Made by a program: the position numbers and the translations under genes. Below the pieces are notes generated by a model, which was not told where the DNA came from, did not search any database, and saw only the letters and a list, made by a program, of their open reading frames with translations. Positions 37,022-64,000 of a stretch of DNA of 64,000 nt are shown here, in pieces; the stretch's first letter is position 1, and each line of letters starts with the position of its first letter. This DNA is from a bacterium. Its GTDB lineage: Bacteria > Electryoneota > JAOADG01. The DNA is taken from positions 449,349-513,348 of the forward strand of contig JAOADG010000008.1 in NCBI GenBank assembly GCA_026417415.1, given 5' to 3'.

Positions 37022-38965
37022 GTGTATTTATTGCAAGTTTCTCAGAAATTCACTAAATCCATTCCCATATTTATTCCGTTTTTTCTAGCGTTAGTGCTTA
37101 GAATTGGGTATTCTATTGAATACATACAATCACCTTTTTTTCATTCTCCATCCATTGATGGGATCTACCATATTGAATGGGCAAAAAAGATTGTAGAAAC
37201 TGGTGAATGGAATTTTGAATCAAACAAACCCTTTTTTCGAACCCCGTTCTATCCAACGTTTTTAGCACTGTGTTTTTCTGCAGGTTTAACTAAAGAAGGT
37301 ATAGTGATAGTACAGTCACTATTAGGTCTATTGTCTCTCTTTTTAGTATTTCGAATTGCGGATGCTTTGTTTCATCGCAAAATAGCAATTATTGCAGCCA
37401 CGATATTTGCCCTTGGAACGCCATTTTTGTCTTACGAAATGGAATTTCAATTACCTGCTCTCATGGTTCCAATAGGATTAACAGTTTTTTACAATTTTAT
37501 TCTTTTTTACAAACAGAAATCTTTAAGAAACGGACTGTTAACTTCTTTTTTCATAGGGCTATTTACAATAACTCAACCTAACGGTTTCATTCTAATTTTT
37601 CCGTTATTCTACTTGATTAAGAAATTTAAAGTATACTTTAAGTTGAAACAGAAACTACTACTTTCCACACTTTGGATTTTACCTGTACTTCCTGTAACGG
37701 TTTACAATTATTTACAATCTGGAGAATTTGTATTCTTATCAACGCAAGGAGGAGTGAACGCTTATCTTGGAAATAATCCCCAAGCTGATGGTGCCTACGC
37801 CATTCATCCTATGTTAGGTGAAGATTGGGAATGGGAAGAGGCAAAACGTTGGGTGGGTGAAAATCTTACTGACGCACAAGCTGATCAAATGTATTATCTA
37901 AAAGTGTTTGCATTCTGGTATCACAATCCTTTTGAAGCAATTCTTCTCTTTTTACGAAAAATACTTTACTGTATCCATTGGTACGATATAGGTAACAACA
38001 GAAATCTACAACTGTTTTGGAATGAATTCGTTGTTACAAAATATTTTTTTGCAAAATTCTACTTTGGAGTAATCCTTCCATTTGCTCTCTTTGGATTTTT
38101 TTTACTGTGGAAAAATAAAGAAGTACGTTTTTTGATTGGAATTGTTTCTTTATTCATGTTTTCTTACGTGCCATTTTTTATAACTACTCGTTATCGTCTT
38201 CCTTTTCTTAGTGTGATGCCGATATTGGTTGCTTATACGATCAATACCCTAATTGAAAAAAAAATAGAATTGACCAACCTAAAACAAATGGGTTTATTTC
38301 TCTTTTGCATAGCTCTTGTTTGGCATCCATTGGGCGCACCTAAAGCAGACGCAGCACAATTTTATTACTCAAAAGGGAATGCATACCAAAACTTGAAAGA
38401 TCCTATTAATGCAATTCAATTCTATTACAAAGCCATTCAAATTAGTCCAAATAAACCCATGTATTTGAACAACATGGGTACAGCATATTTACAATTGGAC
38501 GAAATTGATTCTGCAAAATTCTGGATAGAAAAAGCATATCAATTAACTGTGGGAAAAAATAAAAACATTGTAAACAATTTGGGTGTGATTCAAGAACGTT
38601 TAGGATATTACTTTTCTGCAATGAATTCTTACCAAGCGGCAGATCAATTGAAGGATAAAAATGCTGCTATAAATTTAAAGAACTTATTTTATCGCGTAAT
38701 TTATTCTCCTCCTTCAGAAAAAATTGAAATTAAACACTTAAAGGGATTTTCAGATTCACTAACTCGTTTCAATCCTAATCTAGCCGAAAGATTGTTACTG
38801 CAAGCAAAGCTTGCAATTTTGGATTCTGACTTGTTGCAATTCGAACATACATTAAAAGAGTATCAAGAGTTAAGAAATGAAGATAAACTTTATTATTATG
38901 ACTCAACCATGTTTCAACAAATTATAGATGAATTAATTAAAATTAAACAACCTGAAAATGAATAA
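37022..38965 (+). CDS. GT39/ArnT/PMT-like polytopic glycosyltransferase with a C-terminal TPR domain.
   Basis: N-terminal half has 11 or more TM helices, beginning 'FHSPSIDGIYHIEWAKKIVETGEW'. The C-terminus has TPR units ('AAQFYYSKGNAYQNL...AIQFYYKAIQISP...NNMGTAYLQL'). Confidence 0.55.
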   Translation: MYLLQVSQKFTKSIPIFIPFFLALVLRIGYSIEYIQSPFFHSPSIDGIYHIEWAKKIVETGEWNFESNKPFFRTPFYPTFLALCFSAGLTKEGIVIVQSLLGLLSLFLVFRIADALFHRKIAIIAATIFALGTPFLSYEMEFQLPALMVPIGLTVFYNFILFYKQKSLRNGLLTSFFIGLFTITQPNGFILIFPLFYLIKKFKVYFKLKQKLLLSTLWILPVLPVTVYNYLQSGEFVFLSTQGGVNAYLGNNPQADGAYAIHPMLGEDWEWEEAKRWVGENLTDAQADQMYYLKVFAFWYHNPFEAILLFLRKILYCIHWYDIGNNRNLQLFWNEFVVTKYFFAKFYFGVILPFALFGFFLLWKNKEVRFLIGIVSLFMFSYVPFFITTRYRLPFLSVMPILVAYTINTLIEKKIELTNLKQMGLFLFCIALVWHPLGAPKADAAQFYYSKGNAYQNLKDPINAIQFYYKAIQISPNKPMYLNNMGTAYLQLDEIDSAKFWIEKAYQLTVGKNKNIVNNLGVIQERLGYYFSAMNSYQAADQLKDKNAAINLKNLFYRVIYSPPSEKIEIKHLKGFSDSLTRFNPNLAERLLLQAKLAILDSDLLQFEHTLKEYQELRNEDKLYYYDSTMFQQIIDELIKIKQPENE

Positions 38966-45464: not shown

Positions 45465-45669
45465 TATTACTCCTTCGTAAACCGTGCAATGGTTTAACCT
45501 ACTCTATTTCCGAAAAAGTTTAACATTTATTAGATGCATGCTCTACTCTTCATAGACATTTGAAACAGAAAATAGTGAGTTTACGCACGAAAAAAAAATC
45601 ATCTAATTTAGAGTGGCTTGCTATAGATTAAAAAATTGATTAAATAAGTTTTTGTGTTTTGGAGGAAAT

Positions 45670-50079: not shown

Positions 50080-50110
50080 TGCGCCGCAATGATGCGGCGC
50101 ATCTCTTGAA
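50080..50110 (-). terminator. Rho-independent terminator after the 1899-aa gene.
   Basis: On the minus strand: GCGCCGCA-TCAT-TGCGGCGC followed by ATTTTTTGT. Confidence 0.7.
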
Positions 50111-50121
50111 AAAAAATCATT

Positions 50122-53100
50122 TTACTTCACTAAGACCATTTTTTTCAGTGCTTGAAATTTACCGCTTTCTATTCTATAGAAATAAACCCCTGCAGCGAAT
50201 TTAGTGCCGTCAAACCGAACTGAATGATATCCTGCAGGTAATTCTTCATTGACCAGCGTTGCCACAGTTCGACCTAAAAGATCAAACACTGTAAGTTTAG
50301 TTAACCCTTTTTCTTTTAGATCAAATCGAATCTCAGTAACGGGATTAAATGGATTCGGGTAGTTTTGGTGCAATTTATATTCTACTGGCAAACCATTTTG
50401 ATCACTAACTTCGCTTGGAATTCCAACAGTGATTTGAACAGGAATAACATGGGGTGAAGGGCAACCATTGAAAATGATGCGAATGTTTGCGTTTAAGATT
50501 TGCCCTATGGTATGAGTTGAGTCAACAGTAACTTGGACAAATAGATCATTGGTTTGACCCGGTAAAATCGTTCCGCTGGTAGGATTGGCAATAATCCAAG
50601 TGGACCAACCATTTTGTGCAAATGCAATCTTATAGCCGTCCATATTGGTCGGGATATTCTGACCAGAAGTTGCAGTATAATAGCATTGGATATAATTGTT
50701 GTTTGCACCTGATCCACCTTGAATACCAATGGTGGGATTCAGTGCGCTTTCCGTCATACTATTGTATGCGAAGATGATACCGTTATTCGAGCCGTGTAGT
50801 TGAACTTGAAAACTCACAGTGTTTGATGGTGTACTGTACCGATAGCCATTCCATTGAACATAAAAAATATTTGAAGCAATATCATGATAAGTAATCGCAG
50901 TAGTCACTAAATCATCCCAACAAGGCATAATCATATTCGTTGCAACTGTTGTAGGTAAAGTAGTATTACCTAAAGAGTTACTTCCTGTAGTGGTGCCTAA
51001 TTGAATGAAACCATTGGAACAGATCCAAAAACCACCTGAATAAGTAGTTCCGTAATATTCAAAAGTAAAGTTGCCAAAGTTTGCTGCTAAGCCATAATCA
51101 TCTTGACCAGTGAAAATTGTAGTACCAATTGAAGTAATATCAAAGAAATCAAAACTGGGGAAATCATTTTCTACATTGTCAATTGCTTCATATCCTGAAC
51201 CGTCTGGTCCCCATCTAGTATCTGTACTAGTTTGAAGTGTTTGTAAACGTACACGCCAATTAAGTGGAGAGTTGCCTGTATTTTGTAAGGTTACTGTAGT
51301 TGAAGAAATTAATCCCGGCGGTACCAACATTTCTACAGAACTTGGATTTACTGCTAAAATTGGACGTGTCATATAAAAGTTCAATGTATCAGTTTGAGCA
51401 GAATCTACAACCACTCCAGTGATAGTAACAGTATCATAGCAAGCAACTCTGGCTTGAACATCATAGACGCCAGTACGTATATCGGGAATTACAAAATTTC
51501 CGTTGATGTCAGTGATCGCACTATAAATTCCTGCTCTTACTTCTACATTTGGCATGGGTGGTGTGCCCGGGATTGAATCCCGTACAGTACCTACTAACGA
51601 ACCAAATCCAGGACCCATAAAATTTCCTTCATCAGCACCAATATCACAAGTAGTCCCAGATCTCGTATCTCCATCAAAATCAAAATTAAGAGTTGGATAT
51701 CGTAAAGCCCCATTTTCTATTACAGTACTCAAGAGTGGATTAATATGCAGATTTGTATCAGCTACAAACGGAGCCAATTCCGAAAATGAGAGTTGATCAC
51801 GCGGAGACCAAGTGGGGTTATTGACGAGTTCTTCCAAAGTATTGATGTTGGTAGTTCCAATTCGTGCAGGATAATTGTTATCCGTTAAATTTCCTGGAAT
51901 AGGAGCAAGTAGATTGTAATTGCTAAAAAGAATTGTGGTTGGCGTATTGATATAAATTCCAACGTGATAGTTTGAAGTTGTGCCACCACTTCGTGTATTT
52001 TGGAAAATATTTCCCCATAAGGTATCACCAGTAGCAGATGTACTTCCAAAATAAAACCCAAAACTGTTACCTGAAGATGTGGTTCCTTGTATCCAAACAG
52101 AATTGTTCACGTAAGATGTGCGCGCATATGTTCCTGAACCAGCTTCATAGATACCATATACACTACCTGTAGTGCCAGCACCAACATTGACCATATTGTT
52201 CGCAACCAAATTGTTGGCATCATAGATACGAATACCATACACTGTACTTGAAGCAGTTCCACGGATATTATTGACATGGTTGGAGGTTATCTGTCCAAAT
52301 TGAAAACCAGTAGTTGTAAAAATTCCATAAACGGTTGAACTAGAACTTGGTGTTACATGGAACAACCGATTTTTATGGAATTTAAAGTATGTATTATACC
52401 CAGTATACAAACCATAATAATAAAAGTCACGGATATCACAATTTTCAACGGAACTTTCAGTGATTAATTCTGCTGTACTTCCATAAGCATATATTGAATA
52501 ATATCCTCCGATAAGTTCACAATTGATGACTCGATTAGCAGGAAGAGGAATATTTGGACTAGTTCCAGTATTTGCAAACTGAACTACGCGATAAGTACTC
52601 GAAGTAGTAATACCAATGTTCAATACACAATTTTTTACCGTATTGTAACCAGAACTATCGGAGAATAATATAACCGATGTAATACTACCACTAGTGTTGA
52701 TTCGGACGTGTCTTCCATTTGGATCGTTGGGCCAACTACCATCCAAAGTAATGTAACGTGCGTTTCGGAATACAAATGCACCTGTGCTTGAAGTAGATGT
52801 TTTATTGATAATCACTTCGGCACCTTGTTCGGGACGAAATACCACAGGTCTTGTTGAATCTGATGTGAAACTGATTGTATCTGCTTGTTCGTTGTAAGTC
52901 CCACTACGAATTAGAAAAGTTACACCTCCTGTACCCACACCAATGTCTCGTAATGCGGCTAATGCAGCAGATATTGAAACAAAATCTGGATTTTCACCAC
53001 CAATGGTCAAATTCCCGCTTAATGAAGCGCGGACAAAGTAACCAAATGTATTATTTGGTGGTGTCGTGCCAGGAGGATTGGCTCCTGAACCACCAAATGG

Positions 53101-60664: not shown

Positions 60665-61270
60665 TTACGATGAACGCATATCTTTACGTCCTAAAAGAGA
60701 TTGTGATAAAGATTCCTCATCAGCAAGACGTACATCAGATCCGATTGGAATTCCAAATCCTATACGTGTGACCCGAACCTGCAATGTTTCAAGTACTTTG
60801 TACAGATAAATTGCAGTTGTTTCGCCTTCGGTTGTTGGATTCATTGCTAGAATAACTTCTTGAATGGTTTCGCGTTGTAAGCGATGCAATAGTTCTTTAA
60901 TTCTCAATTGATCGGGTCCAATATCGTCCAAAGGGGATAAACATCCACCCAAAACGTGATAAAGTCCTTTGAAACCGCTATTTTCAAAAGCAAGAACATC
61001 TGCCGGTGTTTCAACTACGCAGATAACCGAACGATCTCGTGTGGACGATTGACAAATAGTGCACGGGTCAATCTCACTCCAACTTCCACAAACACTACAC
61101 AGCGATACTTTCTTTTTGATTTGGAGAATTGCTTCTGCAAGGGCTTGAATTTCTGAATCGGGTTGCTCAAGTAAATGTACAGCTAAGCGCATGGCTGCTT
61201 TTTTACCGATACCCGGTAACTTTGATAAACGTTTCACAACTTCGTCTATTGTTGGTGAAAAAGTTTTTCC
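60665..61270 (-). CDS. recR: Recombination protein RecR.
   Basis: Helix-hairpin-helix 'LSKLPGIGKKAAMRLA', C4 zinc finger 'CSVCGSWSEIDPCTIC', Toprim domain. The start is probably the Met of 'MGKTFSP'. Confidence 0.9.
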   Translation of the reverse strand, partial: GKTFSPTIDEVVKRLSKLPGIGKKAAMRLAVHLLEQPDSEIQALAEAILQIKKKVSLCSVCGSWSEIDPCTICQSSTRDRSVICVVETPADVLAFENSGFKGLYHVLGGCLSPLDDIGPDQLRIKELLHRLQRETIQEVILAMNPTTEGETTAIYLYKVLETLQVRVTRIGFGIPIGSDVRLADEESLSQSLLGRKDMRSS

Positions 61271-61559
61271 CATTCTAAGTAAGCCCAAATATTAGTAGGT
61301 AAATGGAATATTGTGATTTGGGATGGTGTTGTAGGAAGAGGTTTGTCTCCGCTGCAATTTATACAAGTGAAAGTTTACTTAATTTTTTAAATGGTTGCAA
61401 ACTCGTTTGATAGTAAAATCATTATTAATTTAGTATAAGAAATAGATTTAATAATAAGAACATAACAAAATTTGTAATCCAAAAGACCATAATTTTGTTA
61501 ATTATTCTAATTAGGAACGAAATTAAATTATCTAATATCAGAATTTATCATAAATTGAA

Positions 61560-62234
61560 TTACTTATTTTCAGAAACGTTACTAAATTTATTTTTTAATT
61601 CTTGATTTAGAACGTCTAAGAAAGTGTTAAAAGAAAAATATTTCTTAGAGTATTTTTCTAACATTTTTTCTAAATTGCTTCCCTTCAAGGCATATACTTG
61701 TTCACAACGTTTTGCAATACAGTAATCTGTGATGCCATCACCAATAAAAGTAACGTAGTACCCCTTTTCATAATATTCTAAGAATGGAACACATTTGCAT
61801 AAACTATGTTCACAATCTGGCAAAGGTGTAATTGAATTGTAAAAGGACCAACCTTCATCGCTATCATTTTCTATTAATTCGTTTGCAAATAATTTTACTT
61901 GAAAATTGTATTGATTTAAAAAGGGGATAATAATTTGACGAAAACCTGCTGAAACAACTACAATCTGATAGTTGAATCGTTGACAATATTCATAAAATTC
62001 AAAAAAACCATTGCGGAGTTGTACTTCTTTAAGAATTTCTGAAATGGCTTCACTTATAGGTATTTTTAACGATTTCATCTCTATCGTATAGACATCTTTT
62101 TCTTTCAGTAAACCTTTTTCTACTTCTTGTTCAATTTCTCGCCAATTTTTCATTCCATACCGATCTAAAAGCCACTGAAGCGTATCTTGTACGGTGATTG
62201 TGCCATCAAAATCAATAAGATAAACTTTTTTCAA
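61560..62234 (-). CDS. HAD-superfamily phosphatase (MtnX/PSPase-like).
   Basis: 'VYLIDFDGTIT' is HAD motif I. Cys-rich C-terminus ('CEHSLCKC', 'DYCIAKRCE'). Confidence 0.55.
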   Translation of the reverse strand: MKKVYLIDFDGTITVQDTLQWLLDRYGMKNWREIEQEVEKGLLKEKDVYTIEMKSLKIPISEAISEILKEVQLRNGFFEFYEYCQRFNYQIVVVSAGFRQIIIPFLNQYNFQVKLFANELIENDSDEGWSFYNSITPLPDCEHSLCKCVPFLEYYEKGYYVTFIGDGITDYCIAKRCEQVYALKGSNLEKMLEKYSKKYFSFNTFLDVLNQELKNKFSNVSENK

Positions 62235-62337
62235 TTTTACCCTTTTCCAATTTGAATTCCTCTTTTCATTTGAAAGTTACGATCTCGTATATTACATTGA
62301 AAATGTTCAATAGTGTGAATAAATTGGAATTTGCGAA

Positions 62338-62410
62338 GGGCCTGTAGCTCAGGTGGGAGAGCATCACGTTCGCAACGTGGGGGTCAGCGGTTCGAACCCG
62401 CTCAGGTCCA
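62338..62410 (+). tRNA. tRNA-Ala (anticodon CGC).
   Basis: GGGCCTGTAGCTCAGGTGGGAGAGCATCACGTTCGCAACGTGGGGGTCAGCGGTTCGAACCCGCTCAGGTCCA. G3:U70 alanine identity pair, anticodon loop TTCGCAA. Confidence 0.9.
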
Positions 62411-62415
62411 CAAAA

Positions 62416-62535
62416 GCCGACCCAATGGGTTCGGTCTCGCGCAAGGTGTAAGGGCTTAACCCCGCTAGGCCCGGAAGGGAGCAACGGTCCGCTCAAGAAC
62501 CTGTGCCGTGAGGTGCCGAACCTACTGGGTCGGTC
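62416..62535 (+). ncRNA. ffs: Small SRP RNA (4.5S/ffs).
   Basis: Conserved domain-IV motif 'GGCCCGGAAGGGAGCAACGG'. The closing helix pairs CCGACCCAATGGGTTCGG (62417-62434) with CCGAACCTACTGGGTCGG (62516-62533). It lies directly upstream of dnaX, as in Bacillus. Confidence 0.8.
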
Positions 62536-62551
62536 AATTTGAGGTGCAAGC

Positions 62552-63721
62552 GTGTCCTATATTGTATTAGCAAGAAGATACCGTCCACAAAAATTTTCTG
62601 AAGTCATTGGTCAAGAACACGTTACAGGTACGCTTTCTCGAGCCATTCAACTTAACCGAATTGGACATGCTTACTTGTTTGGTGGTCCAAGAGGAGTTGG
62701 AAAAACGACTGTAGCACGAATTTTAGCCAAAGCGTTAAATTGTACAGAAAGAAAAACTTCAGAACCTTGTAATGAATGTGATAGCTGCATTCAAATTACT
62801 GAAGGGAGAAGTGTAAATGTATTGGAAATTGATGCAGCATCCAATCGTGGAGTAGATGACGTTCGGAGTATTCGTGAAAATGTACGATTGTCAAGTTCTG
62901 CCGGTGCTTATCGAATTGTTATTGTGGACGAAGTCCACATGTTTACTAGAGAAGCGTTTAATGCCTTCTTAAAGACCCTTGAAGAACCTCCAGAGCACGT
63001 TGTCTTTATTTTAGCAACAACAGACGTTCATCAAGTTCCTCCCACAGTTTTATCACGTTGTCAACGTTTTGAATTTCGACGATTGGATGGTATTGAGGTT
63101 GCTAACCATTTGATGAAAATGGCCCGTGAAGAAGGAATTTTATTAGAAACGGGTGCTGCAGCCATCCTTGCTAGAAGAAGTGATGGTTCCCTTAGAGATG
63201 GGATATCTCTTTTAGATCAAATGATTGCCTTTTGTGGACATCAAATTACTGAATTAGATGTAATTACAGCGTTAGGTTTAATTAAATCGGATCGTTTTTT
63301 CGAAATCACTAAAATGATTTTGGATAAAAACGTTGAAGGTACATTTGCTTTCGTAGCTAACTTAATGAACACAGGTGCGGATCTTTCTGATTTTATCCGA
63401 GGATTGATGGAGCACTTTTTAATGTTATTAAGAGTTAATGTGACACATTCAGCAGAACAACTGCCATTGACTCCTGAAGAAAAAAATTGGTTTGAACAAA
63501 CAGCACCGTTATTTCAATCAGAAGATCTGTTACGAATGCTTAAATTGACTTCTGAAACTGAGCTCATTTTACGAGGGAGTTACAATCCAAGATTGCGCAT
63601 TGAATTGCTTTTGCAACGACTGGTTAGAATGGAACAAACCATTGATATCCAAATATTGTTAAAACAGATTGAAGCTCTTGAAACAAAACCTTCAAATGTT
63701 GAGGTAAAAAAAAACCGATAA
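62552..63721 (+). CDS. dnaX: DNA polymerase III subunit gamma/tau, domains I-III. The in-frame product stops after an A9 run; the -1 frame continues to the window end as the tau C-terminal region.
   Basis: GTG start with RBS GAGGTG. 'YRPQKFSEVIGQEHV', Walker A 'GPRGVGKTT', zinc module 'CNECDSC', 'VHQVPPTVLSRCQRF'. The continuation frame 63703..64000 has no stop and reads like DnaX domain IV. Confidence 0.9.
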   Translation: MSYIVLARRYRPQKFSEVIGQEHVTGTLSRAIQLNRIGHAYLFGGPRGVGKTTVARILAKALNCTERKTSEPCNECDSCIQITEGRSVNVLEIDAASNRGVDDVRSIRENVRLSSSAGAYRIVIVDEVHMFTREAFNAFLKTLEEPPEHVVFILATTDVHQVPPTVLSRCQRFEFRRLDGIEVANHLMKMAREEGILLETGAAAILARRSDGSLRDGISLLDQMIAFCGHQITELDVITALGLIKSDRFFEITKMILDKNVEGTFAFVANLMNTGADLSDFIRGLMEHFLMLLRVNVTHSAEQLPLTPEEKNWFEQTAPLFQSEDLLRMLKLTSETELILRGSYNPRLRIELLLQRLVRMEQTIDIQILLKQIEALETKPSNVEVKKNR

Positions 63722-64000
63722 ATTCTGAAACTGAAATCCAACATCCAATCTCACGTACGAAGGAACTCAAACCTCAATTAGAAACAGATAACATTGGTGA
63801 AAAAGGATCTATAGTAAAAGAGCAATCATTACTTGAATTCACACCAGAAAATCTTAACTTAGTAACCCTTAAAAACAATTGGAATTCAATTTGTAATGCA
63901 ATTCGCAAATCTAATGCAGTAATTGGATCTTCTTTGAGTTCAACGACCATTTATGATTGCCAAGACAATACATTAACATTAGAAGTTCTCAATAGTGTCC

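Follow-up and report, generated by a model that had tools for sequence, protein, structure and literature searches.

A conserved poly-A run at the domain III boundary of dnaX is a putative slippage site for gamma and tau in an uncultured bacterial lineage

The window analysed here is a 64,000-nt stretch of bacterial DNA, and its last part carries a dnaX gene. Upstream of dnaX and on the same strand lie genes for tRNA-Ala(CGC) and for a small bacterial SRP RNA (ffs), and the GTG start of dnaX is found 27 nt past the SRP RNA (Table 1). The opposite strand carries recR and a HAD-like ORF at this end of the window, and in relatives ybaB comes after dnaX. The zero-frame dnaX product matches the Pfam families DNA_pol3_delta2 (7.8e-45), AAA (1e-13), DNAX_ATPase_lid (9e-13) and DNA_pol3_gamma3 (1e-13). 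The P-loop GPRGVGKTT and an SRC motif are seen in its translation, and the AAA+ module, the lid and the domain III collar are all present. These matches to domains I-III bear out the identification of the gene as dnaX in the preliminary description of this DNA.

The product is a 100% match to NCBI entry MCX7835044.1, 'MAG: DNA polymerase III subunit gamma/tau [bacterium]'. This entry is on record from one contig (897,919 nt) of one MAG and its protein cluster has a single member; an exact-sequence look-up returned no further contigs encoding the 389-aa product. The best matches among named DnaX proteins come from Ignavibacteria, Kryptonia and Calditrichota, with 40-50% identity. From these matches, and from the Por_Secre_tail domains encoded by neighbour genes in relatives, the host lineage probably belongs to the FCB group.

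Table 1. Features of the dnaX locus and further sites of the window (positions are those of the window).
Feature	Position	Strand	Remarks
A9 run, internal control	38256..38264	+	GAA AAA AAA ATT, ..IEKKIE..
Membrane/TPR-like ORF	37022..38965	+	647 aa, intact, contains the A9 control run
Third A9 run	45590..45598		apparently non-coding; longest open frame across it 108 nt
Adjacent ORF ends	50109..50145	-	end of 5.7-kb ORF and start of 1.1-kb ORF within about 30 nt, flanked by A8 and T7
recR	60665..61288	-	
HAD-like ORF	61560..62234	-	
tRNA-Ala(CGC)	62338..62411	+	
SRP RNA (ffs)	62428..62525	+	small bacterial type
dnaX zero-frame ORF	62552..63721	+	GTG start, 389 aa, domains I-III only, gamma-like, end ...EVKKNR-stop
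-1-frame TGA	63700..63702	+	upstream limit of the frame-joining region
-1 open frame	63703..64000	+	tau linker and start of C-terminal domain, ...KKKPINSETEIQ...LKNNWNSICNAIRKSNAVIGSSLSSTTIYDCQDNTLTLEVLNSV
A9 homopolymer, putative slippery run	63706..63714	+	A_AAA_AAA heptamer 63706-63712 in zero frame
Zero-frame TAA	63719..63721	+	ends gamma in A9 or A12 transcripts, two codons past the run
+1-frame TGA	63726..63728	+	stop for A8 or A11 transcripts, ...KKTDKF-stop

The 3' end of the zero-frame ORF reads ...AAT GTT GAG GTA AAA AAA AAC CGA TAA. While this frame is closed two codons past the A-run, the -1 frame is open up to the last base of the window, which amounts to 99 codons and places the tau stop beyond the window. 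Since the -1 frame is limited upstream by its TGA and the zero frame downstream by its TAA, the two frames can be joined only within positions 63703-63718, in practice inside the A-run. The positions previously reported for the run, for both of these stop codons and for the open -1 frame were all found to be correct when the sequence was re-read. In a run-length model, A9 leads to ...EVKKNR-stop, whereas with A10 or A7 the frame reads on as ...EVKK(K)PINSETEIQ..., and A8 or A11 leads to ...KKTDKF-stop. The whole window contains three A/T runs of at least nine nucleotides, and the one in dnaX is located exactly at the boundary between domain III and the linker.

The translation of the -1 frame was compared with P0002, a contiguous tau of 572 aa and the closest relative of this kind. 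It aligns with residues 448-496 of P0002 (BLASTP, E=7e-11), and the junction is collinear in the two proteins: with A10, the window would read EVKKKPI where P0002 has ESKKKPK. This homology supports the earlier assignment of the -1 frame to the C-terminal region of DnaX tau. No Pfam model matched the tau-type C-terminal extension. A word-index-limited protein search with the 98-aa C-terminal query returned neither a separately called downstream ORF nor a near-identical tau.

For the close relatives (69-71% protein identity, 38-51% GC) the DNA was fetched in all cases. Every one of them (5/5) carries A9 or A10 at the homologous position with tau in frame, and the non-tau frames stop within 1-19 codons. 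In P0002 (locus L001) the run is an A10 in the context TCA AAA AAA AAA CCT; A11 or A8 would give T-stop and A9 would give 19 aa before a stop. P0003 is represented by two independent assemblies of 4.2-4.3 Mb (L002 and L003) and has an A9 in the context GAA AAA AAA ACT, where A8 leads to L-stop and A10 to NSNR-stop. The same context and the same two outcomes are found for P0004/5 (L083-85 and L087), which were seen on at least ten contigs. P0007 (L086) also has A9, with R-stop for A8 and NANESNTTN-stop for A10. A search of the GTDB representatives, which do not include the genome of the window, retrieved only one close relative, of the same species as P0003, and a scan of JGI metagenomes with a clade-specific alignment of domain III gave 5 loci and no new close species.

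In the relatives with 47-51% GC, the dnaX run is the sole A/T run of at least eight nucleotides in 5-13 kb, or one of two. Elsewhere in the dnaX genes of the relatives, lysine is encoded by a mixture of AAA and AAG. The first A of the run falls on codon position 2 in some lineages and on position 3 in others, and among close and distant relatives the flanks vary and the GC content ranges from 36 to 51%. That the run is kept despite these differences in GC content, flanking sequence and codon phase, and despite AAA/AAG mixing elsewhere, argues for selection on the homopolymer itself and not on a KKK peptide.

The tau proteins of the P0003/P0004/P0007 group are short, with 452-475 aa (L002 6001-7428, L083 3001-4410, L086 3001-4359). 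Past the A9, their sequence is limited to a linker rich in proline (about 90 aa) and a C-terminal helix that is conserved (..LQKLVEKYKLMPIPD), and these proteins lack the domain of about 100 aa (NW..LC..R....IG.SL.S..) that is seen in the -1 frame of the window and in P0002.

The survey was extended to distant lineages with 80 dnaX loci from GTDB species representatives and with metagenome loci. Where domain III ends, 11 distant loci carry an A9 or A10, and in each of them both non-tau frames stop within 1-9 codons. These loci belong to Calditrichota (L004), KSB1 (L005), Saprospiraceae (L015), Cryomorphaceae (L022), Francisella (L077), Kuenenia and other Planctomycetota (L041, L043, L080, L082) and two metagenome contigs (L089, L090). 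The run is absent from this position in all sampled Acidobacteriota, Chloroflexota and Patescibacteria. At the level of sequence, the combination of a conserved run and quick stops in both non-tau frames is the signature of Thermus-type dnaX slippage. Thus, the earlier proposal that the A-run is the sole joining point and a slippage site agrees with the conservation of A9/A10 and with the closed alternative frames in the relatives.

Two further observations concern distant lineages. The dnaX genes of Patescibacteria/Saccharibacteria (L011, L014, L028, L034, L045) end at 365-372 aa, have neither an A-run nor a continuing frame, and appear to be of gamma length only. Furthermore, GCC comes directly after the A9-10 in KSB1 and Calditrichota and also, as GCC or GCCCC with a subsequent TGA, in Thermus, Chlorobi and Planctomycetota (L041 1407, L043 5178, L005 5128, L004 1391; Antonov 2013 Fig. 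S3). The clade of the window has C-N-CTAA or CCGATAA after the run instead. The similar bases across phyla could result from ancient common descent of the site or from a convergent constraint.

We propose that the A9 is a programmed slippage site, conserved at the border between domain III and the linker, by which one gene would provide both forms of the clamp-loader subunit. Faithful decoding of the assembled A9 would result in the 389-aa gamma-like protein. Addition of one A by an RNA polymerase slipping on the T9 template (A10, or likewise A13 or A7) would place the tau linker and the C-terminal domain in frame (...EVKKKPINSE...), with ...NVEVKKKPINSETE... as the predicted junction peptide. 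From an A9 template, transcripts with +1 or +4 nucleotides would thus encode tau, those with +0 or +3 gamma, and those with +2 or -1 a gamma-like protein ending in ...TDKF-stop. A -1 slip of the ribosome on A_AAA_AAA would lead to the same tau protein and may contribute. We infer that slippage takes place at this run and that its route is mainly transcriptional. The complete reading, i.e. a real A9, a dnaX gene split into two ORFs and tau produced mainly by transcriptional slippage, is the one we adopt, at about even confidence.

The RNA around the run was searched for stimulatory elements. An Rfam scan of positions 62000-64000 (E up to 5) returned only the tRNA and the SRP RNA and no match at the slip site. 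No downstream stem-loop was found, the 65 nt past the run folding at -2.7 kcal/mol (z=+1.0), and the whole region of 141 nt around the run does not fold better than shuffled sequences (z=-0.34). In the 50 nt upstream, no hairpin better than shuffles was present in the window or in 14 relatives. Across the window and up to 14 relatives, the folds gave z values from -1.7 to +1.6 without a conserved hairpin. Since the folds resemble shuffles and no hairpin is conserved, we discarded an E. coli-type stem-loop as well as an upstream hairpin of the Penno type. The lack of an RNA stimulator, together with a variable codon phase at a constant length of 9-10 nucleotides, points to slippage of RNA polymerase and not to a ribosomal cassette of the E. 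coli type. The sequence evidence hence favours transcriptional slippage as the mechanism.

Slippage of this kind is known from comparable runs, and mRNAs from 9-A/T runs were described to carry up to 6 extra nucleotides (PMC5009743). For the A9 in dnaX of Thermus thermophilus, experimentally proven transcriptional slippage (Larsen et al. 2000) yields about 50% of each product according to passages in PMC1088944 and PMC5009743. The window shares with T. thermophilus the A9 at the same boundary, the near stops in both alternative frames, the independence from RNA stimulators and a single gene as the source of both products. In T. thermophilus, however, tau is encoded by the template and gamma results from slippage, whereas the window as assembled shows the reverse. 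Similarly, dnaX of E. coli with its -1 programmed ribosomal frameshift resembles the window in the gene, the position in the protein, a slippery heptamer of lysine codons and two DnaX forms as the outcome, but the E. coli shift leads to gamma and the shift in the window would lead to tau. The three elements of the E. coli cassette (A_AAA_AAG, a Shine-Dalgarno sequence some 10 nt before it and a stable stem-loop some 6 nt after it) are all missing from the window. In mxiE of Shigella flexneri and in the poly(A) rescue of endosymbionts (Buchnera, Blochmannia), the longer functional product needs a non-templated nucleotide, as would tau in the window. These cases concern other genes, and the rescue in endosymbionts is adventitious in decaying genes, whereas the dnaX run is ancient and conserved across phyla.

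The closest counterparts are the two-ORF dnaX genes described by Antonov et al. 2013 (NAR 41:6514, PMC3711429), who reported, in 12 genera, 17 dnaX genes that change to the -1 frame at the DNA level and produce tau via recoding. In 12 of the 17 the transition is at a poly-A run: nine genes have A10, Chloroherpeton has A9, and Chlorobium species have A8 and A7. The genes were found in Chlorobi, Bacteroidetes and Verrucomicrobia whose genomes are finished, and the genera include Chlorobium, Prosthecochloris, Pelodictyon, Chloroherpeton, Flavobacterium, Cytophaga, Capnocytophaga and Coraliomargarita. In the review of Atkins et al. 2016, dnaX serves as the example in which one nucleotide reverses the roles of the products (PMC5009743). 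With these 17 genes and this review on record, the inverted polarity is not something new; the preliminary description had called it unusual if genuine. The window and the two-ORF genes have in common a -1 transition where domain III ends, a junction with a poly-A run of 7-10 A, a zero-frame stop 1-3 codons past the run and a second ORF that encodes the tau C-terminus. Unlike those genes, dnaX of the window belongs to an uncultured bacterium of a different lineage and has A9 followed by CCGATAA, not A10 followed by GCC..TGA. To tell recoding from errors and pseudogenes, Antonov et al. also required the transition to be conserved in related genomes, whereas the 5 close and 11 distant relatives of the window keep tau in frame. 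Judged by its sequence, the window dnaX therefore matches the two-ORF type in every feature except for this split conservation among relatives.

In all 16 A-run relatives sampled, tau lies in the template frame, and only the window has gamma there. A second genome with a split dnaX was not found by exact look-ups, among GTDB representatives, in JGI metagenomes or with the C-terminal query. The genome may contain A10, the assembly being one base short. The gene would then be a contiguous Thermus-type tau ORF of ordinary polarity, with tau made by faithful decoding and gamma from A9 or A11 transcripts stopping at the TAA at 63719 or the TGA at 63726. L001, the nearest relative of the same architecture, has its A10 in the same phase (TCA AAA AAA AAA CCT versus GTA AAA AAA AA- CCG), and tau is in frame in all other A-run dnaX genes sampled. 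Moreover, an A10 would be the longest homopolymer of the window and hence the most error-prone, and the sequence stems from a single MAG contig (898 kb), possibly assembled from long reads.

The accuracy of the assembly can be judged from the remainder of the window. Both strands were scanned over 64 kb for frameshift-like junctions, defined as the end of a long ORF where another frame is already open and continues without a nearby start codon; the dnaX site was the only one. None of the 48 other long homopolymers checked (A/T of at least 7, G/C of at least 6) breaks a frame. Around each of those in coding sequence, about ten A8/T8 runs among them, the ORF stays open in both directions, and the window has uninterrupted ORFs of 5.7, 5.1 and 3.6 kb. 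The A9 within the membrane/TPR-like ORF served as an internal control; this ORF is intact. Should the RNA polymerase of this organism slip on A9, truncated products would be expected from the same ORF as well. The two ORFs that abut on the minus strand at 50109-50145 were considered as another frameshift candidate; this site was unflagged by the signature scan and probably represents ordinary adjacent genes.

An assembly error had initially been regarded as the simpler explanation. The A10 of L001 in the same phase supports this suggestion, but with the homopolymers of the window otherwise clean and genuine two-ORF dnaX genes in finished genomes of related phyla, we do not favour it. An undercalled A10 is a serious possibility that we rate at about one chance in three, and we consider it somewhat probable that the genomic A9 is real. 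With either length, programmed slippage is predicted at this site; the two differ solely in its direction.

A related view is that, within this uncultured lineage, the run switches from A9 to A10 and back from one close relative to another, so that the template product flips between gamma and tau and slippage supplies the other form. The hypermutable run would then act as a heritable rheostat of the tau:gamma ratio, possibly polymorphic in populations, instead of being a fixed recoding signal. Taken jointly, these two ideas appear unlikely to us.

Alternatively, with a real A9, -1 programmed ribosomal frameshifting at the A_AAA_AAA heptamer might be the main source of tau, a route like that of E. 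coli dnaX. On this heptamer two tRNA-Lys could re-pair perfectly in the -1 frame, the window contains a gene for tRNA-Lys(UUU), and an SD-like GAGGT immediately precedes the run. A Chlorobium candidate with E. coli-like stimulators is also mentioned in the Atkins review (PMC5009743). The GAGGT, however, is only 1-2 nt from the site instead of about 10 nt and is not conserved in L001 or L086, and the window is devoid of both a downstream stem-loop and an Rfam frameshift-element match. In E. coli, A_AAA_AAA is reportedly far less shift-prone than A_AAA_AAG (PMC5009743). The varying codon phase at a retained length of 9-10 also indicates selection on the homopolymer and not on an in-frame heptamer. 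We therefore regard a mainly ribosomal origin of tau as improbable.

Tau might instead be truncated by a recent non-programmed frameshift, be it a pseudogenising allele, a deleterious one at strain level or heterogeneity of the population caught in the MAG consensus, but this is very improbable. Homopolymers are hypermutable by replication slippage (PMC1088944) and the relatives carry the in-frame version, which both speak for such a mutation. Yet the -1 frame is wholly open with conserved residues, and slippage on A9 would restore tau regardless. Moreover, tau is described as the essential DnaX form in a passage of bioRxiv 10.1101/2022.11.10.516041, and no second dnaX was seen. The suggestion of a separate downstream gene with its own start, which has nothing but the open frame itself in its favour, can practically be dismissed, since the first ATG, GTG or TTG of the -1 frame occurs 215 nt beyond the gamma stop, within the conserved domain, and the region matches the one-ORF tau of P0002 in a collinear manner, with the KKKP junction included.

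We return to the reading with a real A9 and mainly transcriptional slippage. The window and its relatives present three arrangements, A9 in frame, A10 in frame and A9 out of frame, in which one base swaps which product needs slippage. This role swap by one base is a point already made in the literature and opens no new question, and the sole unusual aspect of the window, its polarity, is confounded by a possible one-base miscall. For annotation, MCX7835044.1 and similar MAG entries under-describe dnaX by omitting its tau part, and a filter for frameshifts would mistake the dnaX of the window for a broken gene. The locus would extend the set of bacteria with tau and gamma from one gene via poly-A slippage to an uncultured, FCB-like lineage.
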